Positions 127-43,918 of a stretch of DNA of 44,978 nt are shown piece by piece. Position 1 is the first letter of the stretch. Each line of letters begins with the position of its first letter. A program made the position numbers and the translations under genes. The DNA lies in the IMG/VR virus record IMGVR_UViG_3300018031_000011, positions 1 to 44,978 of that record. The stretch is one strand, 5' to 3'. Under the pieces are notes generated by a model, which had not been told where the DNA came from, did no database searches, and saw only the letters and a list, made by a program, of their open reading frames with translations. This stretch comes from a virus. Its lineage: Duplodnaviria; Caudoviricetes.

Positions 127-154
127 CGTGTGACTCACACAAGGAACTGTCCAT

Positions 155-832
155 ATGTCCGCAACCATCCGAACAATCGTAGACGATGCTACTGAATTGA
201 TCGGAGAGGTTGCGGGCGTGGGCGTCCAGCAATTCGACGATGACGTTCTGTTTCGTCATGTCATTCGCGCGTTCAATTTACTGTTCAAGAAGACGCATTG
301 GGAGAACTATCGCCAATGGTTTACTGTTGTGCTCGATGGAACGACCGGAGTCATTACAACCGATACGTTCGAGCAGGTAATTGATTTTGACGATTTTATC
401 GCTGTTCACATCGCCGGTGAGACAGGAGCGCTTCCCACGTTATCGAAGAACATAAATCCAAATACGATTAAAGGCACTCGGCCGCGGTGTTATACAAGTT
501 TGCCTGTGACAAATGCGAACTATGTCAAACGCAAGTTGCAAATTTATCCGGTATTGGCAACAGGATCACTAGACGTACATGCCCGTGTATATCCTCTGGT
601 TCCACCAGCGCTAGATTGGGACTTCCTTGATGTTATGCATCTGGACAAGGATATGCTCGTTTATGCGACGGCGTTCATGGCATTGATTGGCAATTCGCTC
701 AATCCAGATGCTGCGAATGTGTGCAAAGAGCTTATGGAGATGAAATTCAATACAATTACTGCTGGTCTGGCAGGTCAGCCTATTCCAATTGAAGGCGACA
801 CGTCTATTCCAACTCAATGGTTCGAACGATGA
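155..832 (+). CDS. Putative head-tail adaptor / tail tubular protein A
   Basis: 225 aa; AAGGA RBS; helical N-terminus and C-terminus typical of adaptors; lies between capsid genes and the nozzle gene. Confidence 0.6.
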   Translation: MSATIRTIVDDATELIGEVAGVGVQQFDDDVLFRHVIRAFNLLFKKTHWENYRQWFTVVLDGTTGVITTDTFEQVIDFDDFIAVHIAGETGALPTLSKNINPNTIKGTRPRCYTSLPVTNANYVKRKLQIYPVLATGSLDVHARVYPLVPPALDWDFLDVMHLDKDMLVYATAFMALIGNSLNPDAANVCKELMEMKFNTITAGLAGQPIPIEGDTSIPTQWFER

Positions 833-2658
833 CCGCTACGTTGCTTCCAAAGAATTTACGAGCGGTCAAGAAGATTCCGCTCGTTCCTTTGACCATTCGC
901 GGTTTCAAAGGCGGGCTGAACTCTGTCGATAATGACATTGAGATGGCTGGGCAGTTCTGTCCGGTGCTGGACAATTGGCGCCGATCGCCTTCCGGTACAC
1001 AGATTCTTCGGTTTGGATCGAACTGGTTCACAGACATTAACAGCGTATCCAATAGTCCAATCGTAGACGAAGTTTTCTTTTCCAATTCGATCATTTCGGT
1101 GCAAGAGAATGGTCAGGTCGTTGCGACGGATGTTGATGGCATTGATACTATCATTTGGAGTGACGCTATTGCAGCCGCTCTTCTTGGAAGCCCTGATGGA
1201 TGGTCTACTGGGCTGGATTCCATAGACTTCGTTCCATTCAAGAACAAATTAGTCATTCACAACGGAGTCGACAAGCCTATCATTTTCGATAGCAATCTCG
1301 TCGGCAAGTATCTGCAAGACGAGGCAACTGGGAGCAATACCAATGTCCCAATCGGCAAGTACGGATGCGTTGTCAGCAATTATCACTGCGTGGCAGGAAT
1401 TCCTGCGGCTCCAACAACTGTCTATATCACAGCACAAGGAACAGTCGGAACGTTTCCTGGCGATCCTCCTCCTAACGATGCTATTTCTCTTGATGTGGGC
1501 GCTTACGCTCCCGAAGGTGCGCCAGAAATTCGAGGAATTGCAGGCTTCCGATCCTTCCTCATCGTCTTCTTTGAAAAACAAGCTCTGCTGATCCAATTGG
1601 GAGTATATGATACCGAATCTCCTCCGAATCATACGCCCAGTTTCAATGACACGATGCCTGCCTTTGGCTTGTTGGGTCATCGATGCATCCTTCAAGTCGA
1701 AAAGGACCTTTTGTTTGCTAGTCAATCTGGTGTCTGCTCTGCCTCACGTAATCTTTTTAGTGGATTGGTCGAAAGTTCGCCGCTCAGCAGTTATGTCGAA
1801 CCAGAGTACAGGCGTGATGTCGGAGCTTTGACCGATGCGCAACTTCTTAAGTCCTGTTTCATGCTCTACAACGAAATGGCGCACGAAACAACGCTGCATC
1901 TTCCTGACGGCAACGGGTTCTTGTACTGTGCCAACGATCAACTTAAATACAAGAGTTGGTCGACGTTTAGCGGCGAGTCTTATCGGTCAGGATGCGTGTC
2001 GTCAAAAGGGCGAATGTTTCTATCATTTGGCAGTCGTATATTCCAAGGAGGCAATAGAATCTTTGCCGGCGAAAGTTATCATGCCGATCGTCTAAACGAC
2101 CGAGACGGCAATTGGAATACCGGTACGCCATATGTAGTGGGCGATATAGCTCGTGATATCGATGTAGATATAAGCTTTATCTGTATCGGGGACCATACAA
2201 GTGGCGGCACAACGTTCGAAGCCGACAGGACAGCACAAGCTACTGAGCCGAAGTGGGAGGAATATCTTGGAGAACCTATCGACTTTGAGCTTGAGATGCC
2301 TTGGCTTGATGGAAAAGATCCAATGCAGATCAAACATATTCGATACGTTTCGATTGCTACGAAAGGAACTGCAGAGTTTACGCTCTCAGTATGGGTGGAC
2401 AATTTATATAAAGATGCTGATGGTGTACTGCAGTATGCCCCTGCTCTATCTATGTTGTTTATTGGTAATGATGCCCCTGGTTTTGGTTTTGACGCTGGCC
2501 CTTATGGTGGTGGTCGGCGTTCTAACGATCCTCGCCTGTATAAGTTCCCTGTTCGTTTCAAAGCTATTAAACCGAAAATATCCGGTTCTACCAGATTCCC
2601 GCTAGAGGTGTCTGGACTGACGTTTCTGTTCGCCCGTGGCAAATATGGACGCGTGTGA
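829..2658 (+). CDS. Putative tail nozzle / tail tubular protein B (P22 gp10 / T7 gp12-like)
   Basis: ~610 aa beta-rich; N-terminal F(K)GGLN motif typical of podoviral nozzle proteins; ATGA overlap with the upstream gene (alternative start 817). Confidence 0.65.
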   Translation: MTATLLPKNLRAVKKIPLVPLTIRGFKGGLNSVDNDIEMAGQFCPVLDNWRRSPSGTQILRFGSNWFTDINSVSNSPIVDEVFFSNSIISVQENGQVVATDVDGIDTIIWSDAIAAALLGSPDGWSTGLDSIDFVPFKNKLVIHNGVDKPIIFDSNLVGKYLQDEATGSNTNVPIGKYGCVVSNYHCVAGIPAAPTTVYITAQGTVGTFPGDPPPNDAISLDVGAYAPEGAPEIRGIAGFRSFLIVFFEKQALLIQLGVYDTESPPNHTPSFNDTMPAFGLLGHRCILQVEKDLLFASQSGVCSASRNLFSGLVESSPLSSYVEPEYRRDVGALTDAQLLKSCFMLYNEMAHETTLHLPDGNGFLYCANDQLKYKSWSTFSGESYRSGCVSSKGRMFLSFGSRIFQGGNRIFAGESYHADRLNDRDGNWNTGTPYVVGDIARDIDVDISFICIGDHTSGGTTFEADRTAQATEPKWEEYLGEPIDFELEMPWLDGKDPMQIKHIRYVSIATKGTAEFTLSVWVDNLYKDADGVLQYAPALSMLFIGNDAPGFGFDAGPYGGGRRSNDPRLYKFPVRFKAIKPKISGSTRFPLEVSGLTFLFARGKYGRV

Positions 2659-2667
2659 GTCACACAG

Positions 2668-4311: not shown

Positions 4312-4327
4312 TGTGTGAGTCACACAG

Positions 4328-6765: not shown

Positions 6766-6791
6766 CTGTGTGAGTCACACGGAGAGCGAAC

Positions 6792-7746: not shown

Positions 7747-8694
7747 ATGCCTATTGATCCAGTCACTGGCTTCCTCACTGCCGGAACGTTAGTAGGCAAC
7801 ATCCTACAAGGTAGTGAACAGAGCTATCAGAATCAGCAGAACCTCGCATTCCAGAAATGGCTTGCGAATGAACAGCTGAAGCTGGGCAAGGCGTCACGTA
7901 CAGACGCCATGGGTAATACTGTTCGCTATGATCCAGGTCTGAATGCTTGGGTCACGGACCTTTCGCCAACGCAACGCGCACTCTCGAAGGCAGGTGAACA
8001 TGAACAACTGCTTGGTCTTACAGACGATGCTGCAAAAAGTCGTGTTATCCGGGAGCGTGCATACAATCGAGGAATGGGCGCCGCCGATGATTTTACCCGT
8101 GCCAGAGCCGATTACAACTACGGCTACAATCCTTCTGAAGGAGCCATTACCAACGATATCGCGAGCTTGATGCTTCGCGCTAGATCAGGCGCTGGTGGTA
8201 ACGATGCACCAAACAAGTTCCTTCGCCAACGAGGCAATTTGCCTGTTATCAATTCTGGCGCCGGTAGTCCTGGGGGTGTGTCTGGCGTTGCTGATGCTCT
8301 ACTACAAGCGCGGCAAGGGGCCATAGGTGAGCGTGGTCAGCGACAACAACAGCGTCAAGCAAAGCTTCCTGAAATGCAATCACTTGCTGCTATGAGCGAC
8401 GCCGGCGGTGGAGGCAATACGCCGTTCCCGAACTTCGACAAACTGTTCGCTAGTGAAGGTGATCAGTCCAAACAATTACTTGGTGCCATGGAAGCTGGTG
8501 GCAAAGGAGTCGGCAGCGCCTATACCAATATTAGCAAACAGAAACCGATATTTGATATGGGCGACACCGCTCGATTGATAACGGCTCTGCGCGGTGGTAC
8601 TCCCTCTACGGGCAAGGCAAAAGCAGACGCGATTGCATCGTCGACAACGGATGAGCGATCGATCGACGATATCATGTACGGCTTAACCGTGTGA
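7747..8694 (+). CDS. Putative internal virion / ejection (pilot) protein
   Basis: 315 aa Gly/Ala/Gln-rich with hydrophobic Gly-rich N-terminus (DPVTGFLTAGTLVGNILQG). Confidence 0.55.
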   Translation: MPIDPVTGFLTAGTLVGNILQGSEQSYQNQQNLAFQKWLANEQLKLGKASRTDAMGNTVRYDPGLNAWVTDLSPTQRALSKAGEHEQLLGLTDDAAKSRVIRERAYNRGMGAADDFTRARADYNYGYNPSEGAITNDIASLMLRARSGAGGNDAPNKFLRQRGNLPVINSGAGSPGGVSGVADALLQARQGAIGERGQRQQQRQAKLPEMQSLAAMSDAGGGGNTPFPNFDKLFASEGDQSKQLLGAMEAGGKGVGSAYTNISKQKPIFDMGDTARLITALRGGTPSTGKAKADAIASSTTDERSIDDIMYGLTV

Positions 8695-8906
8695 GTCACA
8701 CAGTGGACGAAAAAGAAATCGAAAATCGAATGCTGCGCGAGCAATACGGCATGCTCAAACGTCGTGGTACGCCCGATACCGATCCGCGTATCAAGGCCAT
8801 CCTGCGCACTATCGAAAAGCAGAAGCTTGGGAAGCCCAAAGAGGGTGTAGATTTCCCGCCACAGATCAAGTTTAAGCCTCGGAGGAAGCAACATGGCCTC
8901 AGTTGA
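8691..8906 (+). CDS. Hypothetical basic protein (start GTG 8691 or 8703)
   Basis: Fills the gap between adjacent genes with overlaps at both ends. Confidence 0.55.
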   Translation: MSHTVDEKEIENRMLREQYGMLKRRGTPDTDPRIKAILRTIEKQKLGKPKEGVDFPPQIKFKPRRKQHGLS

Positions 8907-9684: not shown

Positions 9685-9717
9685 CCAAAACGTGTGAGTC
9701 ACACAGGAGAAGGTACC

Positions 9718-10595: not shown

Positions 10596-10621
10596 CCGTG
10601 TGAATCACACAGGAGGCAACA

Positions 10622-12077: not shown

Positions 12078-12092
12078 CTGTGTGAGTCACAC

Positions 12093-15000
12093 ATGCCGTA
12101 CAAGCTCAAGATCACAGGTCCCGGACCCCAGGATTTCGAATGGGTCTGGGAAGACACGCCAACGGAATTGCCGCCGGTCGATCTTCCTGAGTGGCCGGCA
12201 CTTCCACGTGCTGCTGAAGGCGATATTGAAACTCCGCTCGGGAAAGAAGAAGCTCCGGCAGATGCTCCTGCGGCTGCTGGTGAACAGACATCGCCTTCTC
12301 GTGAGGCAATGCGGCCACGGATAAGGATCACACCACGCGAACGTGATAACGTAGGACCGGTCGATCCTCGTTCTATTGTGCCTGATGCTATAGACAACGT
12401 ATTCCCAGAACCGCCGCGCGTGAGTATGGCTGACGACTTGCCTATTCCTACAATGCAGCAGGTGAATGAGCCCGAACCTGTCAGGTCAATGGACCCGCTG
12501 CGCCAGTTATACTCGTCAGTGGTGTCGTCGCCGGCCACAGCTATATATGATACTGGTGCAACTATCGCCGAGAACATGGGACCTGCTGCCGCTTTAGCTG
12601 CGCGTGTGCCATACCGTACTGCACGAGAAATGCCGACGCCTGATATCTACAAGGCTGCTGGAGATTTCTTACGTCGTGCCGGAGCGTCAGCGCGTAGTCA
12701 AACACGGAACTGGTTCGGTGCAGCAGAGGAGCCGCCAGATGTCTTTTCTCGGACTGGTCGAACTGTCGGTGAAAGCATTGTCCCGTATGGTAAAGCCCCA
12801 GCCCTTACCTCCGCAATCGTCGGAGGTACCAATACCGCTGTCAATGAGGCGCGTCGTGCCGTTAAGAATTCCTCTATTACTGACTTTGAAGTGCCTCCTG
12901 GGTGGGTCTCCGGGGGCTTCGTCAGCCCTGCGATGGCTGCTCCGAATCAGTTTGATGCACCTCCTGCGAATTATACGGTAATGGAGACTGTCGGTGGTCC
13001 CAAAAAGGTATCAAACACTGAACTCGCCGCGGTTGGTTCCATTGTGCTCGCGACTGCGGGAATGGTATTTGGGCCGCGCATCTATCGCCGCTTTCGATCC
13101 GGAGACTTGCCGAGTATGCGTCCTGTTGCGGATGCACCGCGCGGCACGTTTGCAATTAGTAAGCCCGGCGACTTGGCACGTACCTACGATGATGCAAACG
13201 CGGGAGCGATGCGTCTGCTGCGTCGCACAGGTATCGATCCAGTGGCTGCCCGCGAAGTCGAAACAACTATGCGTATCCAGACCAGAGCTACAGCCAACGC
13301 AATGGCCGATTCTGCTATCAATGCCGGGCGCATGGAGACTCCAGCTTTCACCTTCGCCTCCCGAGTCCCATTAGCACGCCTCGCTCCATTGGAAACTCCT
13401 GAGGTGCGCAACTATCTTCACCTTATGGACACTCTCGACGATCTGCGTGCACACAGTCTGTACATGCTCAATCGTCGGATGCCGGGCACGCCTGTCGTGC
13501 GCGGTACAGACCAAATCACAGGCGGCGCAACTCGACGTGCTATGGAGGCAGCCAATCCAGAAGTCGTACAAATAGCTCGTGAGTATTGGGACATTACGCG
13601 TAACCTACGGAACTTCGAAGCCACTGGCGAATATGCAACCGTGTCTCGATCACAGAACGCACACCTCAAGCGCTCGCGGCCGCATGAAGTGCCTATGCAT
13701 CCTCGTCAAATAGGCGACGATTTCGAGCGTGGTAGCGCTGTCGAGTCACTTGCCGATGACATGCGCAATCGAATTCGTGCTCGTCTCGAAAACGAAGCCA
13801 AAGGCAAATATGTCGACGCAGCCAATCGGACTATGCCAAATCTATTCACTCGTGTTGATGCTGCAGCCCTGCACGATAACCCGCGTTGGCGCCGTAACAC
13901 GGTAGAATTCAAACGTCGCGGCGTGACTGAAACCTATGTCACCGATCCGTTCCTCGCTGACGTTCTGCGCATGGACCCGTACTACATCATGGGCAATGCA
14001 GCCGGTTTCTTATATGGTACGAAGCGTCTCCTAGAAGTATCAACAACAGGCGAATTGGCACCATGGTTTGCCATCACTAGCCCCATTCGTAGTTGGGGTA
14101 TTGGCAAGTTCACTGCTGAGCCTGGAATGCGTAGCCCTACAGCCCTAGGAACAGTCGCTGCCATTCCAAGGCAGGTTGCTCCACAAGTGGCAAATTCTGT
14201 CGCAGGTATGTTAGATCGAGGGAGTGGCGGATGGTTAGGACGTGTATTTGGTCAGGGGAACGTACAGGCTTTGAGTGCACGGCTGGCGAATGCTTATCAG
14301 AATTCTCTGTACTACCAACTGCAGACAGTCGGTGGTGGGCGTGGCTCCATCTTACAGCAGCAAACGACCGCTAATAATCGGTTGGCAAATGCTATCCGCT
14401 CAACTCAGGGACCTGGACGTGTATTCCTGGAAACCTATCGCTCTCTGCTCAACGCTTCACATAACGCAGCAGCCTTTGACTACGCCCGACGCAATAGTGG
14501 GAGGCTCATTCGCGACCGTATTCGTGGCCGCGGACCTGCCGTACCACTACCCGAGTTGGCTATGCGTGCTCGGCACATGACAGGCGACCCACGTATCGGC
14601 GGCGAATACTACACCAATACGCCAGGTAGCAAGGGCGGCGCCAATCCAATCCGTTTTGTGGACGAATCCAGCCGTGTGAATCACACACTTGGCGTCATCG
14701 CGAAGCAGTACGGCAAAGTCACCGAAGCCGGTCGTGTAGCCATTCCTTGGTACAACGCGACAACTCAAGGCGTGAAGCGTCTCGGCGAGGCGTATCTGGA
14801 CAACCCAGCCAAGTTCACAGCGCGTACGTGGCTGTACTACATCGCACCAACTGCAAGTCTGTACCTTGGTACTAAATCTCTTGGTAATGATCCGAACGGG
14901 CGCAGTTACATAGACTATGCACAGAACGGGCGCAGTGAATACAGCAAGACCATGAACTGGTACATACCAATCCCAGGACAGCCGGCTGAGAAGGGTATCG

Positions 15001-16109: not shown

Positions 16110-16117
16110 CGTGTGAC

Positions 16118-16471
16118 TCACACAATCTTGTGCTTCTTTCTCATGTACGCGGCCCAATTCTCCAGCTCTTTAATCGTTCCTTCCATGATGCGTTCGTCGC
16201 CTGGTGATACACCATCTCCTGGACTCAAGGTACTCATCATGGTCGAGAACAAGTGCTGTGCACCGCCCATGTAGGCATCGTATAGGTCCGTGAGCCTCGG
16301 ATCGTTATCAGGAATGTGCTTGTATAAACCTGCCCTAGCAACAATCCATCCGCTGAGCAAGATCAATCCGGATTCAACGGCTGCCTTGTTGATAACTGCC
16401 GAAACCAAAGTGACAACTGCGTCTCGCTTGTTCACGTTGCAACCTCCAGAATTTTGGTCGTGGCTCTCCAC
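16118..16471 (-). CDS. Hypothetical protein
   Basis: ORF track; its TGA stop lies inside palindrome 16111; the true start may be downstream of 16471. Confidence 0.6.
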   Translation of the reverse strand: MESHDQNSGGCNVNKRDAVVTLVSAVINKAAVESGLILLSGWIVARAGLYKHIPDNDPRLTDLYDAYMGGAQHLFSTMMSTLSPGDGVSPGDERIMEGTIKELENWAAYMRKKHKIV

Positions 16472-16684: not shown

Positions 16685-19174
16685 TTATAGCTTGACTACT
16701 TTCATATCGGACCATCGATGTAGTCCTTTCGGGTCTTCTACGAACTTACGCTCCTTGTCGTCCCACGATGTAGGATAACTCATCTTAAGTTCTGCCGCGA
16801 TCGATAGTGGCTCGGGCTTCCTGCGTTTATACACATCTTGCAGTAGGATGGGTGTCTCGGCATGCTTCATCATAATTTTGAGGCAGGTCTTCGCGTACTT
16901 CGGCGCCGAGATCGCGACAAGGTTATCGTGTACATCGATGGCAATCCGAGCGTACATATAGTCAGGCCATTCATCGTCTGCTTCGGATTGATACCAAACC
17001 TGAATAACTTTATCTCCAATCGTCGATTGGGGATAGAAGGCGATGATCGAATCGAGGACATCATCGTCGATTCTCTGTACGATCTTAAGTCTTCGGCCGA
17101 AAGGGTTATAGATCGCTCTCGTTTCACGGAATCCCTTCTCCTCTGCTACCCACCATTCTTGCAACTCTGGCGTAATCGAATGATAGAGCGTAAACGCTTT
17201 GGCTGACTGATGATACGGAAGGCCCGTGACTTGCGAAAGTCGGTAACGCTCCATCCGATAATTAAGGCCATGACGGCAACGCTTAGCAATGTAACGCTTC
17301 GTAGGCTGGAGTTGGTCATCCCAATCCCTCGTCGGTATCTGATCGTACGGTATCTTGAACATCTCAGATGCTAGCGCTCGGTGGCAGTCGTACGACCCAT
17401 CCTTCCGCGCTCTCGCAAACTGGGCCTTCCATATGGGGATGTCCGCTCTAAATGATACGACTTGAGCTTCGGCCTGGGCAAGATCGAAATACAACAGCAC
17501 GCACCCTGGGTCAGCAACGTACATTCCGCGTGCTCGCATGGGCTGGTTTTGCATATTGCCACCGTCTTTTTCGACGAGTAGCTGAGAAGAAGAGAGACGG
17601 CCAGGAGCCCGACTGACTCCGAACTGCTTGTATTCGCATCGAAAACGACCGTCATCGGACACACGACTTTCAGCATATGTTCCACGGAATTTGTCCTCCT
17701 CTTTCCACTTGTCAAGCGATGCCAGCATCTCTTTACAGATAGCCGGCGTGCGAGGGTTCTTGATTATTTCTTTTCGATTAGCTTCATCTGTGGAGCGCCC
17801 CCTGCCTTCAAGTTTGAGAACCTCGAAGAACAGATGCTGCAACTGCTGCCACGAACCGGGATTAACCTCGTAACTCTCGTCTCCTGTAGCCTCACGGACA
17901 AGACGAAGGAATTCAGCTTCGCATTTGTCAACGTCCTCGCGCACCAACTCGCCAATTCTGTCTTTAACTGCGAGGTCAACTGCCACGCCGTGCACCGTCG
18001 AGCGATATAGATGGGGCTGTGCCCGCATGATGTGATTAAAGAAGACTTTGTCCATTCCCTGCTTATGGAGTTGAGTGTCCAGCTTTTCATAACTGGCATA
18101 CGTAAGCGCCGAGTCTTTACAGTTGTATCTCCAAAAGGTGTCGATGTCACTTTGTTCTCCCCATGATTCAACGTCATCTTTGTAGTACGGATGGTTAGTG
18201 TATTGCGCAACTATGAATGCCAACGAATGTGGTAGTAGTGGGTACAGTGCGTGATGCGCCAGCAATGTATCGAACCAGAAGTCTATCCTTAGCAATTGGT
18301 GCATCCACGAATAGTACGCATCGAATTGACAGTTCTGTCCGATCATCGCGTGTGAATCACACAGTTCCTGGATCGCGTATAGTATGTCTGTCTCCTGCGA
18401 TACCGTGAACCTATTTTTCGTCAGGTCCCTGAAGTTGATGCACATGGCCCTGTGTGGATTGTTCGACAGGCCAATGCACGCCATCTCCTTATTGATCGCC
18501 TCGACGTCCAACGCGATTGGTCTGTCCACTTTTCTTAGGTCTCTTATAAAAGACATGGCCTCCTTATACGTAGGATTTATAATTTCTTCTATGCGATGTG
18601 GTACGAATTTCCCGTCCCTTGCCAGCATCGCCTTCTTCAGGTCCATGATGAAGAAAGGCTCGAAGCGCGGCTCGCGTCCCGGCAACACGTAGGCCGGATT
18701 GAATGTGCATGCCACGTGGCCATCTCGTCCATTGGGTAGCTCCATCGGCAAAATGGAGCCACGCCATTTGGTAATGCCGTCCAGTCCTGCGACGGCCTGT
18801 AAAGCATAGTTGCCTAGGCACACAATCACCTTCGCGTTCTTGAGTTGTGACAGTTCCCATTGCGTAAGGTCGATCCACTTGTCGAGCTCATCCTGTCCGA
18901 CGGCGTACTTTTCTTTATCCTTACCTGAACCAGCAATCTGCCTTTTAACCACATTTGTTGCGTATACTCTTTCCCTCTGGTACCCTTCACGACCTGCGGC
19001 TTCCCATAGGAGATTCCCTGAAGCTCCCACGAAGGGCTTCCTTCTGCGTATCTCAGTTTCTCCAGGGCCTTCTCCGATAAATACGATCTCTGCATTTTGC
19101 GGGCCATCTGAGAATACCTCCACGTTCAGACGCATGTCCGATGCTTGGCACTCGAAATCATACTGCAATGTCAT
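16685..19174 (-). CDS. polA: Family A DNA polymerase with N-terminal uracil-DNA-glycosylase-like domain and 3'-5' exonuclease
   Basis: UDG family-4-like GEGPG..PFVGASG..TNVVK; Exo I LDVE, Exo II NCQFD, Exo III YNCKD; Pol motifs A DLAQAE, B RYIAKRCRHGLNY, C VHD. Confidence 0.93.
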   Translation of the reverse strand: MTLQYDFECQASDMRLNVEVFSDGPQNAEIVFIGEGPGETEIRRRKPFVGASGNLLWEAAGREGYQRERVYATNVVKRQIAGSGKDKEKYAVGQDELDKWIDLTQWELSQLKNAKVIVCLGNYALQAVAGLDGITKWRGSILPMELPNGRDGHVACTFNPAYVLPGREPRFEPFFIMDLKKAMLARDGKFVPHRIEEIINPTYKEAMSFIRDLRKVDRPIALDVEAINKEMACIGLSNNPHRAMCINFRDLTKNRFTVSQETDILYAIQELCDSHAMIGQNCQFDAYYSWMHQLLRIDFWFDTLLAHHALYPLLPHSLAFIVAQYTNHPYYKDDVESWGEQSDIDTFWRYNCKDSALTYASYEKLDTQLHKQGMDKVFFNHIMRAQPHLYRSTVHGVAVDLAVKDRIGELVREDVDKCEAEFLRLVREATGDESYEVNPGSWQQLQHLFFEVLKLEGRGRSTDEANRKEIIKNPRTPAICKEMLASLDKWKEEDKFRGTYAESRVSDDGRFRCEYKQFGVSRAPGRLSSSQLLVEKDGGNMQNQPMRARGMYVADPGCVLLYFDLAQAEAQVVSFRADIPIWKAQFARARKDGSYDCHRALASEMFKIPYDQIPTRDWDDQLQPTKRYIAKRCRHGLNYRMERYRLSQVTGLPYHQSAKAFTLYHSITPELQEWWVAEEKGFRETRAIYNPFGRRLKIVQRIDDDVLDSIIAFYPQSTIGDKVIQVWYQSEADDEWPDYMYARIAIDVHDNLVAISAPKYAKTCLKIMMKHAETPILLQDVYKRRKPEPLSIAAELKMSYPTSWDDKERKFVEDPKGLHRWSDMKVVKL

Positions 19175-19819: not shown

Positions 19820-19828
19820 CTGTGTGAC

Positions 19829-19981
19829 TCACACGATCCGGATTAGTAACAGGAACGCAACTGCTACTGCGATGGGCACGATGATCATGGACAGCCATAG
19901 CGGTGTTGCCATGATCATCGCACGTCCAGGATGGAAGCCAGTCCTGCGATAGTAGTAGTAACGCCGTTCGAAGGTATGCAT
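19829..19981 (-). CDS. Small membrane protein
   Basis: TAATG coupling to the helicase stop; GAGG RBS; C-terminal TM; stop inside the palindrome. Confidence 0.55.
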   Translation of the reverse strand: MHTFERRYYYYRRTGFHPGRAMIMATPLWLSMIIVPIAVAVAFLLLIRIV

Positions 19982-21225: not shown

Positions 21226-21497
21226 CTCCTAATGGGTTTGACGCCCGGAGGCAACATCGTATCACGCACCACAAACTTAACTGGTGTTGCCTCTTGAGCA
21301 TTGCCTTCTCTCAACACTTGATGCGCAGCCTGCACCATGACTGTGCGCATGAACCGATTGACTGATATGCCCAGAAGTTTGGCAGCAGCCGTGATCAAGT
21401 TCCTATCCGACGGCTCGCCACGGAATACGATTTGAGCCTTGCCTGCACTGGGAGGCTCTCGCAGATCGATGGATATTGTGTAACGGGCTTCGAGCAC
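21222..21497 (-). CDS. Ribbon-helix-helix DNA-binding protein (DUF1778-like)
   Basis: QIVFR..SDRNLITAAAKLLGISVNRFMRTVMVQAAHQVL matches the RHH pattern. Confidence 0.65.
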   Translation of the reverse strand: MLEARYTISIDLREPPSAGKAQIVFRGEPSDRNLITAAAKLLGISVNRFMRTVMVQAAHQVLREGNAQEATPVKFVVRDTMLPPGVKPIRS

Positions 21498-21852: not shown

Positions 21853-21863
21853 CTGGTTTGTGG

Positions 21864-21892
21864 CGGGACCGTGTGTGAATCACACGGTCCCG
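21864..21892. terminator. 12-bp hairpin CGGGACCGTGTG/CACACGGTCCCG overlapping palindrome 21873; possible terminator after the SSB gene
   Basis: Perfect inverted repeat with 5-nt loop in an intergenic gap; no clear U-tract on the - strand. Confidence 0.4.
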
Positions 21893-21910
21893 TAGCATTC
21901 TCATCTCGTC

Positions 21911-23596: not shown

Positions 23597-23691
23597 GTTC
23601 TAGTTTCCGTTCCTTACAACAATCACAACACCGTCCCTCTATTCGGCAGCAGATGAAATCGCACCTAAACCTTGGGTCTGTGTGATTCACA

Positions 23692-24804
23692 CTAAGCCTC
23701 CTCTATTGCCCTCTCGCTCGGACTCTTGAGTGCCGGTACCATCTCTCCGTACTGCTCCACCCTTCCCGCGGCACTATCTCCACAGAACGGGATAAGAGCA
23801 CACGGGCGAAAGAACCTGTTACATGAATGTGTGAACCGTGGCGCGTCTTCAAAGTTATCACGGTATTGCTCATACACATCAACTGTATATCGGCACCACT
23901 TACCCCAGGTCTCAAACATCTCTGGCGTTCGTACCAAGGGTTCCACAGGATACACGTCTTCCCCTTTCCCCGTAGGCTTAATTTTAACGCCTTGTACCCG
24001 ACTGCGAACGATCGGAAATCCGAAGATGATACTTGCTGCGAGGCAGTATCCAGTAATCTGGTGATCAAGTTCCCACTTCGCTCGCCAGCCATCACTCAAC
24101 CTCGCTGCTGTCTTGTTCTCGTCCAGTACCGGGGCCTCGTCGAACTTGATGTGATGCACCAGCCCGTCGACAGTTCCTATAAATCGTATCTCTTTCGCGT
24201 CACCAAAGGTGATAACGACATCGAAAGTTTGCTCGATCCCAAGGAATGATTTAGGGTCTCCTCTATCTTCAACGTATATCTTCCAGTTCTCCATTTTCGG
24301 TAGAGACGCATCAATGTAAGCAAGAGTCGCAAGCTGCATGTTCTCCATTGTCCTGACGTTGTCGTCCGGGTTGTCTTCCCATCCAGCGCTGTCAAGGATT
24401 CCGAAACACAAATCCATGAGTTTCTCGCGAGTGCCCCACCCCCCTTTCTTATGAGCACCAATTCCATCCAGTACGTCGTGCCACCGCCTGTATCCGAAGA
24501 TGCGTTCACCTGTTACCTCGGCGTGCTTTGGGAGTTGGTCGACGTGGTGTAACTGCCAGATCCTCGTCGTTGCGAATATCTCGTGCATTTGGTTGCCGGC
24601 CTCTAGGGCCATTGACCTTGCGTTGGTGGCGTATCGGCGTTGGCTGGATATAACTCCCCAGGTCGGACATTGGTTTACGGACTCCAGGCGGGAGTGGCTG
24701 TATGCTTTGAGCTTCTTCTGATGCTCCTTCGTCTTCTTCACCGAAATTATCGTCGTCTTCGATGGAGTCGGCGAGGACGTCATCAGCAACTTCGGCGAAT
24801 TCAT
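23692..24804 (-). CDS. PD-(D/E)XK exonuclease (Cas4/RecB-like)
   Basis: YSHSRLES..CP, GIEQTF, GTVDG, DENKT, QITGY, C-terminal C..FFRPC..IPFC. Confidence 0.85.
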   Translation of the reverse strand: MNSPKLLMTSSPTPSKTTIISVKKTKEHQKKLKAYSHSRLESVNQCPTWGVISSQRRYATNARSMALEAGNQMHEIFATTRIWQLHHVDQLPKHAEVTGERIFGYRRWHDVLDGIGAHKKGGWGTREKLMDLCFGILDSAGWEDNPDDNVRTMENMQLATLAYIDASLPKMENWKIYVEDRGDPKSFLGIEQTFDVVITFGDAKEIRFIGTVDGLVHHIKFDEAPVLDENKTAARLSDGWRAKWELDHQITGYCLAASIIFGFPIVRSRVQGVKIKPTGKGEDVYPVEPLVRTPEMFETWGKWCRYTVDVYEQYRDNFEDAPRFTHSCNRFFRPCALIPFCGDSAAGRVEQYGEMVPALKSPSERAIEEA

Positions 24805-25039: not shown

Positions 25040-25054
25040 GGCCTCCTGTGTGAC

Positions 25055-25585
25055 TCACACGATAATGGGACTGCCGATTTCCTTAGACTTATTATTGAAC
25101 GCTTCACGCATGCACTCTTCCATCGTCCAGCCGCACGACTGACACAATAGGTCCAGGTATATTCCTGTATCGCCAAGCTCAAGCCTAAGCTTTAGCGGCA
25201 ACTTGTCTGGCGCCTCCTTATTCAAATGTCCCATTCCATCGCGTACGCGGTTCATCTTCTTGATGATGTTCGCGGCCTCACCTAACTCGCCAACAGTCGC
25301 GACCATCCACTCGCTTACTGTCCACGCGTTAAGCCTATGACCCATCCCAATAGACGATTCGCATCTAGCCTTATTGGCTTGAGCGAACTCCGAGAACGTC
25401 AGTGCTATTCTGCCGTTGTCGATCAGTCGCCGAATGAATGCTTGGATCGCACCTTCGTATTTCACTCGGTACTCCGGGTAGCTATCATCCACGATGGGAG
25501 GCATAGCCTTGAATGCATTCCACACTTGGAGTAACGCACCGAACTCGGCACTCTGCGCAGCAGTCCTATCAGCGATCGCAACCAT
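25055..25585 (-). CDS. MazG-like nucleotide pyrophosphohydrolase (with N-terminal extension)
   Basis: VGELGEAANIIKK and LELGDTGIYLDLL ExxE/ExxD motifs. Confidence 0.8.
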   Translation of the reverse strand: MVAIADRTAAQSAEFGALLQVWNAFKAMPPIVDDSYPEYRVKYEGAIQAFIRRLIDNGRIALTFSEFAQANKARCESSIGMGHRLNAWTVSEWMVATVGELGEAANIIKKMNRVRDGMGHLNKEAPDKLPLKLRLELGDTGIYLDLLCQSCGWTMEECMREAFNNKSKEIGSPIIV

Positions 25586-26541: not shown

Positions 26542-26621
26542 GTGAGGCTCCGACTCTATGCAGGGAATTTAACTGGACTTCTACCAGACCTCACCGCGCC
26601 CTTAGTCAGCGAGCGTGTGAA

Positions 26622-26978
26622 TCACACAGCCTTGTCAGTTTCCTTCGCGGCAGGCTTCAACATCAAGCCGATGACATAGTCGTGAATGTCCGTGCCCTTG
26701 TCGAGGAAGTGCTGGCCCTCATCGCAATCGACGAACAAGCGACCGTTCCAGTCCTGCTTCACCTCTTTCTCCTCGCCGTCGTGGATGCAATCATACTCGT
26801 CGCCAGTGACGACAAGGGTATCGCCCATCTTCACGTCCGCGACCTTGACATATACATGCTCTCCGGACTGCTCCTCTTCGGCAGTAGTCCCTTCGTTCAG
26901 TGGCCCTGTGTTGAACCCGGCTGTGTTCTCCTCGTCGAACCCATGATCGTCCTGAACCTTGTCCTTACGCTTCGTCAT
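26622..26978 (-). CDS. Hypothetical acidic protein
   Basis: AAGGAG RBS; stop inside palindrome 26615. Confidence 0.65.
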   Translation of the reverse strand: MTKRKDKVQDDHGFDEENTAGFNTGPLNEGTTAEEEQSGEHVYVKVADVKMGDTLVVTGDEYDCIHDGEEKEVKQDWNGRLFVDCDEGQHFLDKGTDIHDYVIGLMLKPAAKETDKAV

Positions 26979-27770: not shown

Positions 27771-28035
27771 TGTCGCCTCCTGTGTGATTCACACGACCCA
27801 AGAACATGTTCATTGCATCGCGCAGTGCTGTTACTTTATCCACTACCTTCGTTACGTTCCTTCTGAAATACACAACCTCTTGTGAATTCTCATAATCACC
27901 GATAGATATCTCCATAGTTGTCCATCGGTGTTCACATTTACGGCACCGTCGCCGACGACGAATACAACCATTCGCCGTCGGCCGGGAGTCTCTCACTTCA
28001 CTCTCACGGTGAGCACAGTATGGACAAGGCAACAT
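27691..28035 (-). CDS. NrdR-like zinc-ribbon protein (no ATP-cone)
   Basis: CPYC..SEVRDSR..IRRRRRCRKC..RWTTME closely matches the NrdR N-terminal domain. Confidence 0.75.
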   Translation of the reverse strand: MLPCPYCAHRESEVRDSRPTANGCIRRRRRCRKCEHRWTTMEISIGDYENSQEVVYFRRNVTKVVDKVTALRDAMNMFLGRVNHTGGDNGTETSNGQSDHDSAEGIPGGSKEEG

Positions 28036-28357: not shown

Positions 28358-28506
28358 AACACTCTCCATTGGGTTTGTCGTGTGAGTCACACAATGATGG
28401 GGGGCCTTTGCATATAGCCCCCCGCATTGGTGCCTCCTACGTTAGTCACACTTTCTCGGATACCCTCAAACCTTACTAACTTCAGGTACCATACTCTACA
28501 GAAACC

Positions 28507-29052: not shown

Positions 29053-29094
29053 TCATCCAGTCTTCATCGTCGTACACCGCGGCCTCCGTGTGAC

Positions 29095-29454
29095 TCACAC
29101 AATACTAACGCCCGCCCTAATCACTGGTATATGTTTACTGCGAGCAACATTAACCATATCAGCGGTCCCATTGCCACCAGGGAATGCAATAACCACATCA
29201 GGCATTCCCCTCTCCACCATGGCTCTGTTTCTAATGGGACCTGCGGCCTTACCGTGTTTCTTCCAATCTGCCTTGTATGTCGTGAGTTGAACGTTATTCG
29301 CTTGCGCCCAACGACGCGCTTGATAGTCCGCACCTTCCGATCCTCCCTCTATCAGATGCGAGATGCCTACATGTGCATGGAAACAGTCCAAGAACCCACA
29401 TAGGTACATGAAGTTTCCATAGTCCCTACCGCCGCATACAAGGACCCGACCCAT
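29095..29454 (-). CDS. YspA-like SLOG family protein (DUF2493-like)
   Basis: RVLVCGGRDY, LIEGGSEGAD, ADWKKHGKAAGPIRNRAM, VIAFPGGNGTADM. Confidence 0.85.
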   Translation of the reverse strand: MGRVLVCGGRDYGNFMYLCGFLDCFHAHVGISHLIEGGSEGADYQARRWAQANNVQLTTYKADWKKHGKAAGPIRNRAMVERGMPDVVIAFPGGNGTADMVNVARSKHIPVIRAGVSIV

Positions 29455-30118: not shown

Positions 30119-30441
30119 GATCCTAGCTCCTCTTTATGTGTGCCTATCCATACAGCATGTTCGGCCAGTTTATCCACATCGATAGAACCATTCAGGTACA
30201 TGATCCTTCCGTTTCTTATCAAGGAGTCGCCATCGTTTATGCAATAACTCAGTATCTTCTCGAACTCCTTGATATTCTCATCAGTCGCCTTATAGCGTAG
30301 CAGCTTCAATATGCACTCGAACACTTGCGCTAAATGACGCCTATCGCCGTGTGACTCACACGCCAAGTCAGCGTAGAACTTCATCTTCTGGAGGAGTTCC
30401 AGGCGCCGATGCTTCCTTATGGTGCTTTCTGATACTGGCAT
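30115..30441 (-). CDS. Hypothetical protein
   Basis: GGAG RBS; contains palindrome 30349. Confidence 0.55.
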   Translation of the reverse strand: MPVSESTIRKHRRLELLQKMKFYADLACESHGDRRHLAQVFECILKLLRYKATDENIKEFEKILSYCINDGDSLIRNGRIMYLNGSIDVDKLAEHAVWIGTHKEELGS

Positions 30442-31156: not shown

Positions 31157-31234
31157 ATCAGCCTCCTGTGTGACTCACACAACCAGTCCTGAGATTGCAC
31201 TAGCTGTCCTGAGATTTGGGTGTGTGTAAAGGGA

Positions 31235-31314: not shown

Positions 31315-32220
31315 TTAGACCAGGACGCTATCAAGGTGCTCATAAACACCCTTGATAATCTCCCGCTGCTTGTCGCTCATTTTGTCTTTCATGGTGTTGA
31401 CAACCGAGATGAAAGACTTAGCGATATCGCGCAATGCCTCCGTAGGATTGGCGAGTACCTTTGACCTGCCGCGCGTGCCGCTAGTGCGATTTACGCTTTG
31501 TCCGCGCTTCTCAGCCGCATTAGCCGCCAATGCAGTGAAACTCGGCTTTTCGGTAAGCTTCACTGCCTTGTCACCAGTGCCGACGGTTTGCTTCTCGTTC
31601 AAGTGTACCGACGGCGCACCGAATATCTGCTTAACCGCAGGACCAGACAATTGAAGCGTTCCCGCCTCCTTGTCCATCTTGGCATTGATCTTGTTATCGA
31701 TCAGCGCTTGCGTAGCTTGGCAGCACTTCTTAAGCGCATGAAGGAAATTGCTCCTTACTGTCCCCTTGCGCTTGCCGATATCGGTATTCTTTTCGTCGGC
31801 AGTCGAGAGCACATAAGGCGCAACAGCCTTTGACCACGCAACCCGCTGTTGCTCCTTATCAGTTCCGGGATTAATCGTCTGAACTTCCTTAAATCCAAGC
31901 GCAATCCCTAACTGATCATTCAGATAACCTTGCGCCTTGGCATCCTTGTTGAATGCCACGGTAAGGTCAATTGACTTGTCGTGTTGTGCCGCCTTCAAGA
32001 TACCCGCCGTCAACTGCGACAACAGGTCATAACGCTTGGCATCCACGTCCTTCAACATAGCGTTAGCCATTTCCTCATCCTGCCGCGTCTTCGCAAATCC
32101 CATGATGACCGCAGGACCGACATCGACGGACAGAGCACCCTTCTTGATGACTGGCACGAGTCCCGTGCTTTCCTCAGTCTCAGTCTTAGCAATCTTTGCC
32201 TTCTTAGCCATTTTCAACAC
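31315..32220 (-). CDS. Hypothetical Lys/Ala-rich early protein
   Basis: 301 aa; AAGGAG RBS; probable start at MAKKAK. Confidence 0.75.
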   Translation of the reverse strand: MLKMAKKAKIAKTETEESTGLVPVIKKGALSVDVGPAVIMGFAKTRQDEEMANAMLKDVDAKRYDLLSQLTAGILKAAQHDKSIDLTVAFNKDAKAQGYLNDQLGIALGFKEVQTINPGTDKEQQRVAWSKAVAPYVLSTADEKNTDIGKRKGTVRSNFLHALKKCCQATQALIDNKINAKMDKEAGTLQLSGPAVKQIFGAPSVHLNEKQTVGTGDKAVKLTEKPSFTALAANAAEKRGQSVNRTSGTRGRSKVLANPTEALRDIAKSFISVVNTMKDKMSDKQREIIKGVYEHLDSVLV

Positions 32221-32577: not shown

Positions 32578-32667
32578 AGCTTGCACTCCTAGGGTTATGG
32601 GCAAGATCGCCCCTTATGGTGTGTGAGTCACACAGCATGACTAACACACCATAGAGCGCAATCCTTG

Positions 32668-32865: not shown

Positions 32866-32986
32866 CTATTATCCTTTCCCGTTCATTCGTTAGGGGATAA
32901 TCGACTAGCCGGTTTTCATCTTGTCTGGCACCTCCGTTCGTTTCAACACGATCACCCTACATCACTGTGTGAGTCACACAACAGCG

Positions 32987-33223: not shown

Positions 33224-33931
33224 AGCTTTTAATCCTATTTGACATGCGGTGAATTCTCTTTTGAGCCGCTGTTTTTCTCTTGGTCAACTGTACTCGCCGT
33301 AAAGGCGCGATAGTTGTCCATTGCTATCATCACTCCCAGTCATTTCACTCTGCGCTACATGTGTGACTCACACGCTTGACTTATAGTGATAGCATTTCGT
33401 TGTATTCCTAGGCATTGATAGCAGAGCGATCCGCCGCGTCGGCGCTATTATTACTATCCGTGAATTGGTTTCGCTATAGGTGAATGAGTTTCACACTGTG
33501 TGACGTACGCGCCTTTTGACGGCGAGTGAATATAACCAACCCAATTACAACCCCGGGTAGTGCCCCCTTTGTCCAATATAGGTATGATAGTGGGGTTGAC
33601 TTGCAGGGGGGCCGACGCAGGAGGACAGGCCGCACCACGTTATTGCTATTGGATCGTTATGGGACACGGACAACTGTGTGACTCACACGCATATGATGCA
33701 TGCCATGAGAATTGTGGACATGATTGGGACAGTATACGCGCCTTCGGCGACACGGATACTGGGCCCAAGAGGAAAACAGCGGCTATTGGTGTGCGCGCAG
33801 GGGGTTTTAGAGGAATAATATCAGGAGTTTTGGGTCCTGAGACGATAAAATCGGAAAAGTGGTACCATGATAAGTGTCGGATACCCGACATTCGTCACAA
33901 TTTTGACACAAAATGATCACGAAAATGTCAT

Positions 33932-33960
33932 TTGACTGTGTGAGTCACACGGTGTATAGT
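33932..33960 (+). promoter_or_regulatory. Sigma70-type promoter TTGACT-17-TATAGT with palindrome 33938-33950 in its spacer
   Basis: TTGACT gtgtgagtcacacggtg TATAGT. Confidence 0.75.
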
Positions 33961-34030: not shown

Positions 34031-34031
34031 G

Positions 34032-34300: not shown

Positions 34301-34346
34301 GTAGTATTTTTCTATATGGTTCATCTGTGTGAGTCACACGGGCGAG

Positions 34347-34375
34347 TTGACACGGTTCGTGTAATGGTGTAGGAT
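34347..34375 (+). promoter_or_regulatory. Putative late-operon promoter TTGACA-17-TAGGAT
   Basis: TTGACA cggttcgtgtaatggtg TAGGAT; palindrome 34327-34339 lies 7 bp upstream of the -35. Confidence 0.7.
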
Positions 34376-34512: not shown

Positions 34513-34544
34513 CCCATCGTGTGAGTCACACAGAGGAGATGGTT

Positions 34545-35664: not shown

Positions 35665-35748
35665 AGAGTATTGGACTTGTCTACTGCCGCCTGGGCATGA
35701 AGGTCCGTGCGTTGGTGGCTGGGCGTGTGAATCACACAGGAGAAAATC

Positions 35749-37747: not shown

Positions 37748-37762
37748 CGTGTGAGTCACACA

Positions 37763-38149: not shown

Positions 38150-38177
38150 GCGCGTGTGATTCACACAGGAGAGTGTT

Positions 38178-39396: not shown

Positions 39397-39493
39397 CGCA
39401 GCAATTAAAGTGCCTAAAACGGTTCTGGATCGTATTTATGCCAACGAGAAAACTTACCGAGACAACTGTGTGAGTCACACAAATGGCAACTGA
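39263..39493 (+). CDS. Putative outer-membrane lipoprotein spanin (Rz1-like)
   Basis: MPSACLLRLTACLSLTFLTTC lipobox-like signal; DSFCQTYQP...C; overlaps the i-spanin in another frame. Confidence 0.6.
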   Translation: MPSACLLRLTACLSLTFLTTCSHLSPLVTDSFCQTYQPLIQQKGDAAIKVPKTVLDRIYANEKTYRDNCVSHTNGN

Positions 39494-41711: not shown

Positions 41712-42879
41712 TCTGATGAATTCGACTGCGATGGATACGGTTTTCGGCAACCTGGGAATGGACTCCCAAGATTTGGGGATGACCGATGACGACTTTGGTA
41801 ATGATCTTGGTGGCGACGACGATCCTGGTGGTGATGACCTGCAAGCGGGAGAAGAACAGGATGACTTCGGTCAGGATGATGCAGGAGAAGACGATGATCC
41901 GTTTGCGATCGATGACGGATTCGAAGACGGACAACAACAGCGGCGTGTGATTCACACACGGGACCGGCGCCAGCAAGACCGTCAGCCTCAACGTCAGCCG
42001 CAACGTCAAGCCGATCCTCAAGCAGCGCGAAAGTTCCGTCCCGATGGCAAAGGTAATGTCGTCAACGGGAAAGGCGAAGTTGTTGCGCGTGCTGGCAAAG
42101 AAGCTCGCATTTTCTGGAGTGGCGAGAAGCATCGTAAGACTTCGGAACGCTCTCAGTTACAACTGCGTGAGACTGCTGGACGCTTGAACAGAATCACTCA
42201 GATTGCGGAGCGTCTCTACAACGATAATAATTCGTACAAGGCTGAGCGTCAGGCGTTCGAGAAGCTCGGCCTGAAGGCGGAAGATCAAGTTTCTGCTATG
42301 CAGTTGTACACGCAGTTAACAAAGAACCCGAAAGAGACGCTCACGAAGTTGTTGACACGTGCAGCGGCAAATGGTATAACTCTAGATGCGAACAACTCCA
42401 ATGCCAACAACAACCAACTCCCTGCTGGTATTGCTGACATTGTGAAGGAAGTTCTCGGTGAGAAGCTGAAGCCCATCGAGACCTTCGTAACCACCCAACA
42501 GGCTCGCGAGGCTGCTCAACAGCGCGCGCAGCAGGATCGGGTGGCTGTGCAGTCCGAAGTTGAAGGTTGGTTTGCACAGAACCCTGCGGCTAGGCCCCAT
42601 GCCCAGGTGTTTCAAAGGGTGTTGCGTAACCCACAATTCGCCAACATGTCGTTGGGGGAAATCTGGGCACGTATTCAATTGAACCATGCGCGCAACCCTC
42701 AAAACGGTCGGCGCATGCGGGACAATTTGAACGGCAATCGTCGTTCCACCTCCCGACATCGGGGGAGTCCACCAAATGGTCGCGGAATGCCTCCTCAGGG
42801 TACTTCTGAGATGGCTGACGTTAACGCGTCATGGGACTCGATCGTCCGCGACGTACTCGATGCAAACGGCGTTGTGTGA
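41698..42879 (+). CDS. Capsid scaffolding protein
   Basis: Acidic N-terminus, coiled coils; between the portal and MCP genes. Confidence 0.7.
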   Translation: MAPRNLMNSTAMDTVFGNLGMDSQDLGMTDDDFGNDLGGDDDPGGDDLQAGEEQDDFGQDDAGEDDDPFAIDDGFEDGQQQRRVIHTRDRRQQDRQPQRQPQRQADPQAARKFRPDGKGNVVNGKGEVVARAGKEARIFWSGEKHRKTSERSQLQLRETAGRLNRITQIAERLYNDNNSYKAERQAFEKLGLKAEDQVSAMQLYTQLTKNPKETLTKLLTRAAANGITLDANNSNANNNQLPAGIADIVKEVLGEKLKPIETFVTTQQAREAAQQRAQQDRVAVQSEVEGWFAQNPAARPHAQVFQRVLRNPQFANMSLGEIWARIQLNHARNPQNGRRMRDNLNGNRRSTSRHRGSPPNGRGMPPQGTSEMADVNASWDSIVRDVLDANGVV

Positions 42880-42901
42880 TTCACACAGGGAGATTTAGGT
42901 T

Positions 42902-43879
42902 ATGGCAGCGTTAGACACCGTTATCCACGCCATGCTTGAGCGTAGCCGTGCTAAGCTCATTATGGCGTCGGCGATATCCGGCTCGGTGAGCGCGTACCTT
43001 CATGCGAAGAAACGCGTTGTCATCGAAGACGGCGGCCCTGAGATCGGCAACCCGCTGATCAACAGCCTCAACCCGAACGTCACCTCGATGCAGTATTACG
43101 ATCAGGTGCCGGTCGACCAGACGAGCGAATTCATCACCGTGAGCTATTCGATGAGTCGCGTCGTCGGAAGCTTGATCATCTCCGATCAGGAAGAAGACGA
43201 AAACCAGGGCCGTGCAGTGATCTTCAAGATTCTCAAGGGCAAAATGATGGCCCTGGAAGAGTCCATTGCGCGTCAATTTGCTACGTATCATACGGCCGTC
43301 GGTACAGGCACCGATCCGAATGGTCTCGGCAACTTGATTCCAGCAGACCCGACAACTGGTACCATCGGCGGCATTTCGCTTGCTACCGAGGCTCAGTGGC
43401 GTCCATCGTCGTACGATTTCGATGGCTCGCTGAACCCGGAGAACATCGAGGAAGCGTTCGACGACATTCTCGAACTCGACCTGAACCGTGGCCAGACCAC
43501 GAACTCTGAGACTAAGGAGAAGCCGACTTGCATCTTCGCCGGTCGGAACATCTATCGCATGCACAAGGCCGCGGCTCGTGACAAGACCTCGATCCAACTC
43601 GGCGAGACCGGCTTCGGTAAGAAGCTGATCAACCTCGGCATCGTCGGCACAACGCACAATGGCGTGCCGCTCATGTTCGATGAGAAGTTGGCTGCGAACG
43701 ATGCCTACTTCATCAACGATTCATATCTGACCCTGCACATTCTACGTGGCGTCAATATGAAGATCAAGCAACTCGTCGCGCCATGGGACACCGACGCAAT
43801 CGGTCGCCGTACCGTCTGGGAAGGTCAGTTGTGCTCCTGGAGGAACTACCGGACCCACGCGTACCTCACCAACACCTAA
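42902..43879 (+). CDS. Major capsid protein
   Basis: 325 aa; EDGG.EI, EEDENQG, GTIGGI, WEGQL...R motifs typical of this MCP type; strong RBS and codon bias. Confidence 0.85.
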   Translation: MAALDTVIHAMLERSRAKLIMASAISGSVSAYLHAKKRVVIEDGGPEIGNPLINSLNPNVTSMQYYDQVPVDQTSEFITVSYSMSRVVGSLIISDQEEDENQGRAVIFKILKGKMMALEESIARQFATYHTAVGTGTDPNGLGNLIPADPTTGTIGGISLATEAQWRPSSYDFDGSLNPENIEEAFDDILELDLNRGQTTNSETKEKPTCIFAGRNIYRMHKAAARDKTSIQLGETGFGKKLINLGIVGTTHNGVPLMFDEKLAANDAYFINDSYLTLHILRGVNMKIKQLVAPWDTDAIGRRTVWEGQLCSWRNYRTHAYLTNT

Positions 43880-43918
43880 TCGCTGTGTGACTCACACGGC
43901 TCTCTAAGGAGACAGGTT

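Follow-up and report, generated by a model that had tools for sequence, protein, structure and literature searches.

What purpose could be served by dozens of identical palindromes scattered over the genome of a phage in which no integrase is recognised? This question is raised by the IMG/VR viral record IMGVR_UViG_3300018031_000011, a single whole contig of 44,978 bp that was analysed over its full length (the window) and that probably represents a circularly permuted genome with a few bases absent at the join. The window carries 35 exact copies of the palindrome GTGTGANTCACAC. Our analysis suggests that these sites are probably bound by E301, the product of the first large early gene adjoining the control region, and that the bound protein may form a repressor or roadblock lattice along the genome. 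We give this reading as a whole an even chance of being correct.

The 35 copies extend from 128-140 to 43885-43897, where 0.00 are expected, and none of 100 dinucleotide shuffles contained a single copy of GTGTGANTCACAC. Each palindrome spans 13 bases, with 6-bp arms and a 1-bp centre that reads G14/C10/A6/T5 on the + strand. There are no copies with one mismatch, and allowing up to two mismatches adds only one site, at 6047 (2 mismatches; 1.97 expected). All 35 sites are flanked by a pyrimidine on the 5' side and a purine on the 3' side, a rule that is not kept in all relatives. Judged against a hand-curated gene set, three sites lie deep within genes (14674, 18350 and 41945), a further one (27782) lies in the 3' part of an open reading frame (ORF) directly before the ribosome-binding site of the next gene, and the others are found at gene junctions or in the control region (Table 1). 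The TGA of the motif serves as a stop codon at 8 of the 35 sites, and a start codon lies within about 25 nt of 20 of them. An earlier note on this DNA, made from the letters alone, had described 35 non-random copies with this free centre, most of them at junctions, one at the point where the late and early blocks converge (16111) and seven between 32621 and 34531; our exact scan and gene-set mapping confirm this description, in which the pyrimidine/purine flank was overlooked. The phage had also been called integrase-less, and indeed neither an integrase nor a partition system is matched among the 76 ORFs scanned, many of which are without annotation.

Is the array peculiar to this phage? A search with the capsid protein matched 207 viral contigs; 80 of these relatives were listed, and 30 of the 80, picked for long contigs, were searched for the motif. 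The pattern GTNTGANTCANAC was found in all 30, with 5-40 copies in the 12 near-complete ones, and a reversed control pattern was absent in 29 of 30. Among the 14 relatives analysed in full, the arms are GTG, GTT, GTA or mixtures of these, and the outer G is relaxed in two lineages among the close relatives. Members further away in the family, which share the gene order and have a capsid profile match at E<1e-115, carry other dyads: GTTGTG-N3-CACAAC in G031, CTTTAA-N-TTAAAG in G032, GATTAA-N-TTAATC in G038, a 16-bp even dyad in G033 and CAACA-NN-TGTTG in G034. Weak dyads only are present in G036 and G039, and no dyad was detected in G037. Because distant members with the same gene order carry other dyads, the array is an old and family-wide feature, the sequence of which drifts along with the phage.

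The spacing of the sites gives a further clue to their role. The largest gap in the window is 2594 bp and the coefficient of variation of the gaps is 0.54, which is more even than uniform placement (P about 5e-5), more even than a random pick among 71 junctions (0 of 20,000 picks as even) and more even than a null with the three intragenic sites held fixed (P 5e-4). Gaps more even than uniform (P<0.05) were found in 13 of 15 genomes and in 6 of 8 further genomes, the relatives being compared with the uniform null only and the motif definitions in G033 and G034 being rough. The intragenic site of the polymerase gene is at the identical position in 13 of the 14 genomes that hold the region, and in 5 of the 9 genomes dominated by GTT the Cys at this codon has been replaced by Phe. 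In the longest gene, internal sites occur at about ten different aligned positions across genomes. Site density is about five-fold higher in the control region, with 7 sites in 2.2 kb versus 16 in 26.5 kb of late genes. The even gaps, together with internal sites in long genes, suggest a role that depends on the DNA being covered. As a separate observation, the longest site-free stretches are large inserts between the terminase genes of G001 (L082 16369-19853) and G003 (L087 4337-10259), which encode lectin-like and 1492-aa ORFs and are perhaps recent acquisitions.

Which molecule reads the sites, and in which form? In six mixed-arm genomes, symmetric sites number 30, 22, 14, 21, 13 and 8, against 29.0, 24.4, 19.4, 25.1, 17.1 and 11.8 expected from independent arms. 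Since symmetric sites are not in excess, the arms vary independently, which is incompatible with a hairpin; we are highly confident that these are protein sites on duplex DNA. The alternative that they work as translation signals, or as hairpins in RNA or in single-strand form, does find some support in the nearby start and stop codons and in a centre that is G at 77 of the 82 sites with an ATG 0-4 nt behind them (18 genomes, in which the sites are not independent). On the coding strand as a whole, the centre is G at 17 and C at 4 sites in the window and G:C 226:169 over 15 genomes (reversed in one genome). However, the centre is balanced (G61:C57, 18 genomes) at sites with their own downstream ribosome-binding site. 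This bias, confined to sites near an ATG, suggests that there the motif also works as a ribosome-binding site, without true polarity, and that translation is a side use; there is no other meaningful orientation to transcription. A translation role would also leave the intragenic and control-region sites without account, and we regard hairpins or translation signals as a very improbable explanation. A host protein could be the reader instead, for example through methylation of a GANTC core. GANTC is the methylation word of CcrM, which like GcrA is a host protein. All 35 sites contain GANTC, and the word is depleted outside the motif, with an observed/expected ratio of 0.73 in the window and below 1 in 15 of 15 genomes, in 9 of which no other of the 16 such words has a lower ratio; the depletion hints at an alphaproteobacterial host. 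However, the dyads of five relatives that share the gene order (G031, G032, G038, G033 and G034) lack GANTC, which is therefore not essential, and the changes in the motif follow the phage tree and one residue of a phage protein. The CcrM/GcrA class was rejected, as its core is not kept wherever the array occurs, and a host reader seems to us quite improbable. It has also to be considered that the sites may be recombination points for the swapping of gene modules, as 24 of 174 alignment ends between relatives lie no more than 20 bp from a site, where uniform placement would give 4.7, and site-to-site deletions are described in the available text on the Cluster O phages (PMC4351075). However, gene ends that lack a site have breakpoints as often (68 of 343) as those that have one (21 of 94; P=0.57), and there are conserved sites inside the polymerase gene. 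The breakpoint comparison largely refutes recombination as the main role, and we attach hardly any probability to it.

The phage protein that we favour as the binder is E301, which probably starts at the ATG of residue 4. A homolog is encoded in 14 of the 15 close genomes, the missing one being a fragment, and in three distant genomes with odd-centred dyads (G031, 5e-73; G032, 2e-25; G038, 5e-6), so that every genome with an odd-centred array that holds the region encodes E301. In 90 homologs, K152, T154, R156, N158 and K164 are each retained in 84-89, and position 161 is His in 74 and Thr in 14; all six positions are placed by the model on one predicted helix. His161 occurs with a G-dominant third base of the arm in 14 of 14 lineages and Thr or Ala161 with a T/A-dominant third base in 12 of 13, so that 26 of 27 lineages, which are not independent, agree with a rule linking residue 161 to base 3. 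The switch at this residue recurs in separate branches of the core tree (the GTT clade, G046/G051 and G032), and eight loci outside the first alignment all fit the rule, several of them being near kin of genomes in the alignment. In a scan of 6446 core-protein columns, 20 tracked the base with two errors or fewer and 6 of those placed G046 correctly, among which E301-161 is the sole non-conservative column. In addition, N158G accompanies relaxation of GTG/GTA in G004, G005 and L239, and L133, kin of these lineages, retains N158 and has GTG in 20 of 22 arms. Taking these observations together, we think it probable that E301 binds the sites.

Structural modelling of E301 was confident (predicted local distance difference test, pLDDT, 88.7) and predicts long helices and, at the C-terminus, a pair of helices attached by a flexible linker. 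A Foldseek search against the PDB returned no match at E<=0.001, and in VIA the best Z was 5.0, for the C-terminal two helices only. The lack of a fold match does not prove a new fold, because E301 was folded whole and not domain by domain. An ORF of 272-359 aa is found at the position of E301 in G033, G034, G036 and G039, and the second half of the G034 counterpart, as modelled, resembles E301 in the order of its elements. The two proteins also have their top two viral fold hits in common, which suggests a modest, transitive link between them.

Other proteins were weighed for the same role. One that looked promising on 15 genomes was a conserved ribbon-helix-helix (RHH) protein (21222-21497), whose gene is present in 15 of 15 close genomes. 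Its TacA-like strand, Q-x-V-x-R, aligns with base-reading positions, which in KacA are R8/D10/R12 (PMC6698736), and the two lineages in which the outer G is relaxed have lost Gln22, a loss pattern shared by 13 of 1898 invariant columns. On wider data this candidate failed. The gene was not found in G032, G033 and G038, all with dispersed dyads, and occurs in G036 and G037, where the dyad is weak or absent; new loci with Thr, His, Lys or Arg at the Gln position retain strict GTG arms, one new locus has Gln with relaxed arms, and G031 has a Gln strand alongside a different motif. Neither the presence of the gene nor its strand residues track the motif, and we consider it unlikely that the RHH protein is the binder. 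The terminase small subunit and an 82-aa winged-helix-like ORF were also rejected, as their predicted recognition helices, judged by eye, are not conserved or are acidic and no column stood out. The latter ORF (16432-16680, -) is itself conserved, and in five relatives it is found after the largest gene, encoded on the other strand.

How might E301 act on the array? We propose that E301, made early, would sit on each palindrome as duplex DNA, probably as a dimer; its basic helix 147-175 is the predicted reader of each half-site. The result would be a non-polar lattice of bound protein that serves as repressor or roadblock and reduces transcription throughout the genome. At site 26 the protein would block a promoter-like match in the late direction whose spacer is filled by the motif. 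We speculate that early-made E301 could be titrated by replicating genomes and thereby time late expression. A repressor lattice is favoured because of the density of sites in the control region, the site in a promoter spacer, and an even coverage that suits the silencing of stray transcription; given binding, we put the chance that the job is repression rather than organisation or protection at a little under even. The same binder could instead have a structural job, in which E301 placed every ~1.3 kb would bridge, compact or shield the phage DNA on entry and during replication, or mark it as self, much like MatP on matS. Selection for a ceiling on gap length, the repeated gain of sites inside long genes, the lack of orientation and the small number of sites at promoters are consistent with such a job, and the predicted long helices and C-terminal two-helix piece could serve to oligomerise. 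On the other hand, the five-fold density in the control region and the two sites on promoter-like matches suit regulation. We regard this structural job as possible but doubtful, although organising or shielding suits the spacing equally well and is nearly as likely as repression. Its boldest form, in which E301 founds a new sequence-specific DNA-binding family by which a large family of uncultured phages lays a chromatin-like lattice with gaps under ~3 kb and a one-residue specificity switch, and organises, shields or self-marks the DNA rather than regulating promoters, is likewise a tentative suggestion; if true, it would give the dyad arrays of integrase-less phages their first protein partner and purpose.

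Several observations weigh against the repressor lattice and against E301 as its binder. E301 has no Pfam match, no PDB sequence match and no recognisable DNA-binding family or fold, and hhalign of E301 with its positional counterparts gave a probability <1%, which is not significant. G041 is an exception to the residue-161 rule, as it combines Thr161 with 94% GTG arms, and G is only weakly dominant in the arms of G004/G005 and L239. For the association, Fisher's test gives P 7e-7, which overstates it, because the lineages share ancestry and perhaps only 3-4 switches are independent. The rule was spotted by eye in the alignment before the column scans were made, the 1338-aa protein was excluded from these scans, and under a looser one-residue rule 7 of 6665 columns performed better than E301-161 and 35 equally well. 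Even spacing failed in G003, G004, G033 and G034. Strong sigma70-like matches lie near 12 of 716 sites in 22 genomes, where 7.4 are expected, and therefore promoter repression would cover few sites; in the window itself, the total of 11 sigma70-like matches, by consensus only, is at chance level. Finally, with no integrase among the 76 ORFs and no prophage relative found, the purpose of silencing is hard to see.

The gene content of the window is that of a tailed phage only distantly related to those in culture. Recognised genes include those for terminase, portal, capsid, tail fibres, endolysin, a RecD/Dda helicase, Sak4, an exonuclease, and a family A DNA polymerase (16685-19174, -) with an N-terminal domain resembling family-4 uracil-DNA glycosylases, which is kept in all relatives. 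No repressor is matched among the 76 ORFs; a test for helix-turn-helix immunity repressors gave a weak feature match to a Streptomyces repressor family (0.81, under the tool's mark of 0.9). Of 112 candidate prophage stretches in GTDB genomes none was confirmed, by a method that finds close relatives only, and no tRNA genes were found in the window. No cultured relative is close (no match by megablast, and none for E301 or portal); the best cultured matches share 23-26% identity in capsid, 20-25% in terminase and <28% in polymerase, and mycobacteriophages are absent among the capsid and terminase matches.

A few further features of these genomes may be recorded. Neither a primase nor a DnaB-type helicase is matched in the 76 ORFs of the window or in 130 further ORFs from six relatives, so that no candidate for lagging-strand priming is recognised. 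The 1338-aa protein (12093-16109, +) is longer in relatives, up to 2155 aa, owing to a proline-rich N-terminus; it is a feature look-alike of an LPD38-containing cluster and is likely an injected virion protein. A 177-aa ORF (24506-25039, -, in the stretch 23692-25039) shares ~300 nt with the exonuclease ORF in another frame, an overlap that recurs in relatives. Three to four imperfect 53-bp tandem repeats at 33028-33242 in the control region, a period not seen in relatives, mark a possible origin. A Tad2-like anti-Thoeris domain is encoded in G001 (L082 7197-7466), and G039 carries a series of paralogous early ORFs of 100-170 aa that share a repeated cysteine motif (L350 13975-17340).

Table 1. 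Palindromic sites and associated features of the window (a dot marks a site given without strand).
Feature	Position	Strand	Remarks
E301, candidate binder	31315..32220	-	basic 301-aa early protein, pI (isoelectric point) 9.6, without family match
E301 helix 147-175, candidate recognition helix	31696..31782	-	His161 codon 31738-31740
RHH gene, TacA1-like	21222..21497	-	weighed as binder, set aside
Sigma70-like promoter match	33932..33960	+	motif in spacer; consensus match only
Sigma70-like promoter match	34347..34375	+	directly 3' of site 27; consensus match only
Site 1	128..140	.	15 nt upstream of ATG 155
Site 2	2653..2665	.	TGA = stop of 817-2658; 3 nt upstream of ATG
Site 3	4313..4325	.	junction; 3 nt upstream of ATG
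Site 4	6768..6780	.	junction
Site 5	8689..8701	.	TGA = stop of 7747-8694
Site 6	9692..9704	.	junction
Site 7	10598..10610	.	junction
Site 8	12080..12092	.	abuts ATG of 1338-aa gene
Site 9	14674..14686	.	within 1338-aa gene, codon ~860
Site 10	16111..16123	.	late and early blocks converge; TGA = stop of 16118-16471
Site 11	18350..18362	.	within DNA polymerase, codon ~270
Site 12	19822..19834	.	TGA = stop
Site 13	21873..21885	.	junction; part of longer inverted repeat 21863-21895, upstream of unit with RHH gene
Site 14	23680..23692	.	junction
Site 15	25048..25060	.	TGA = stop
Site 16	26615..26627	.	TGA = stop
Site 17	27782..27794	.	precedes ribosome-binding site of 27351-27770
Site 18	28380..28392	.	
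Site 19	29088..29100	.	TGA = stop
Site 20	30349..30361	.	
Site 21	31168..31180	.	3' of leftward promoter-like match, 5' of ribosome-binding site
Site 22	32621..32633	.	control region; head of unit with candidate binder E301
Site 23	32967..32979	.	control region
Site 24	33361..33373	.	control region
Site 25	33676..33688	.	control region
Site 26	33938..33950	.	control region; occupies spacer of rightward promoter-like match 33932-33960
Site 27	34327..34339	.	control region; 7 nt 5' of -35 of promoter-like match 34347-34375
Site 28	34519..34531	.	precedes first late gene
Site 29	35725..35737	.	junction
Site 30	37749..37761	.	follows terminase large subunit
Site 31	38154..38166	.	precedes endolysin
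Site 32	39468..39480	.	3 nt upstream of portal ATG
Site 33	41945..41957	.	within likely scaffold gene, codon ~82
Site 34	42874..42886	.	TGA = stop; precedes major capsid gene
Site 35	43885..43897	.	follows major capsid gene

Ever since the Cluster O paper, genome-wide dyad arrays have been documented in integrase-less phages with no binder or function attached to them, and in the literature searched no paper assigns either to such arrays or mentions the present motif. A named protein, a helix and a predicted switch, His161 for GTG and Thr for GTT or GTA, make the question testable without the host. If this prediction holds, it would add a DNA-binding family without a database match, and would imply that in phages selection favours an even coating of the DNA with protein, although amino acids of the polymerase are changed as a price. 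The earlier note had proposed that a dimeric protein binds the whole chromosome, which, judging from the independent arms, the even spacing and the family-wide conservation, is the best reading of the array. Two of the checks that it suggested were productive: the motif scan in relatives revealed an array throughout the family, and the search for covariation with one gene yielded a candidate, residue 161 of E301 against the third base. However, the note also took the array for an undescribed system with the stoperators of phage L5 as its closest precedent, and this is not supported, because comparable arrays are described for the phages of Cluster O (PMC4351075) and cluster EG (PMC7302621).

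The stoperators of Cluster A phages resemble the present sites in being about 13 bp long and in lying at gene junctions genome-wide, and silencing by one phage protein has been proposed for them; in the accounts available they are asymmetric, oriented with transcription and found in temperate phages, whereas the sites here are symmetric and unoriented and no integrase was found (PMC4351075, PMC12266134). The sites in the window thus failed the stoperator tests of asymmetry and orientation. Microbacterium cluster EG phages, as described in the text at hand, have conserved dyads, 18-bp inverted repeats in short intergenic regions, also without repressor or integrase, but with 8-10 copies that are associated with starts and confined to one genome end (PMC7302621). 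MatP/matS of E. coli is similar in that a 13-bp target is repeated along a DNA domain and read by one binding protein to structural ends; according to the portion of the source available it has 23 sites in 800 kb of host chromosome, versus 35 in 45 kb here (PMC3330122), and neither Pfam nor comparisons with PDB sequences and folds placed E301 in a known family. The Cluster O mycobacteriophages, Corndog and its relatives, are described in the accessible part of their report as carrying 34 dispersed 17-bp dyads, non-oriented and partly intragenic, in genomes without integrase, with a binder proposed to be dimeric and a function left unexplained (PMC4351075). The likeness to this array is considerable, with more than 30 copies, invariant arms, a free centre, a dispersed distribution over intergenic and intragenic positions mostly off promoters, and no integrase; the phage and the sequence are unrelated, and the arms and centre are 6 and 1 bp here versus 7 and 3 bp there. 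The present array thus shares the descriptive features of the Cluster O array without homology to it, and the type of array itself is already known. Beyond what the available Cluster O text describes, the motif here diversifies over a large family, its even spacing has been tested, and a candidate protein shows an association between residue and base. What is new is therefore this candidate partner and the evidence from spacing.

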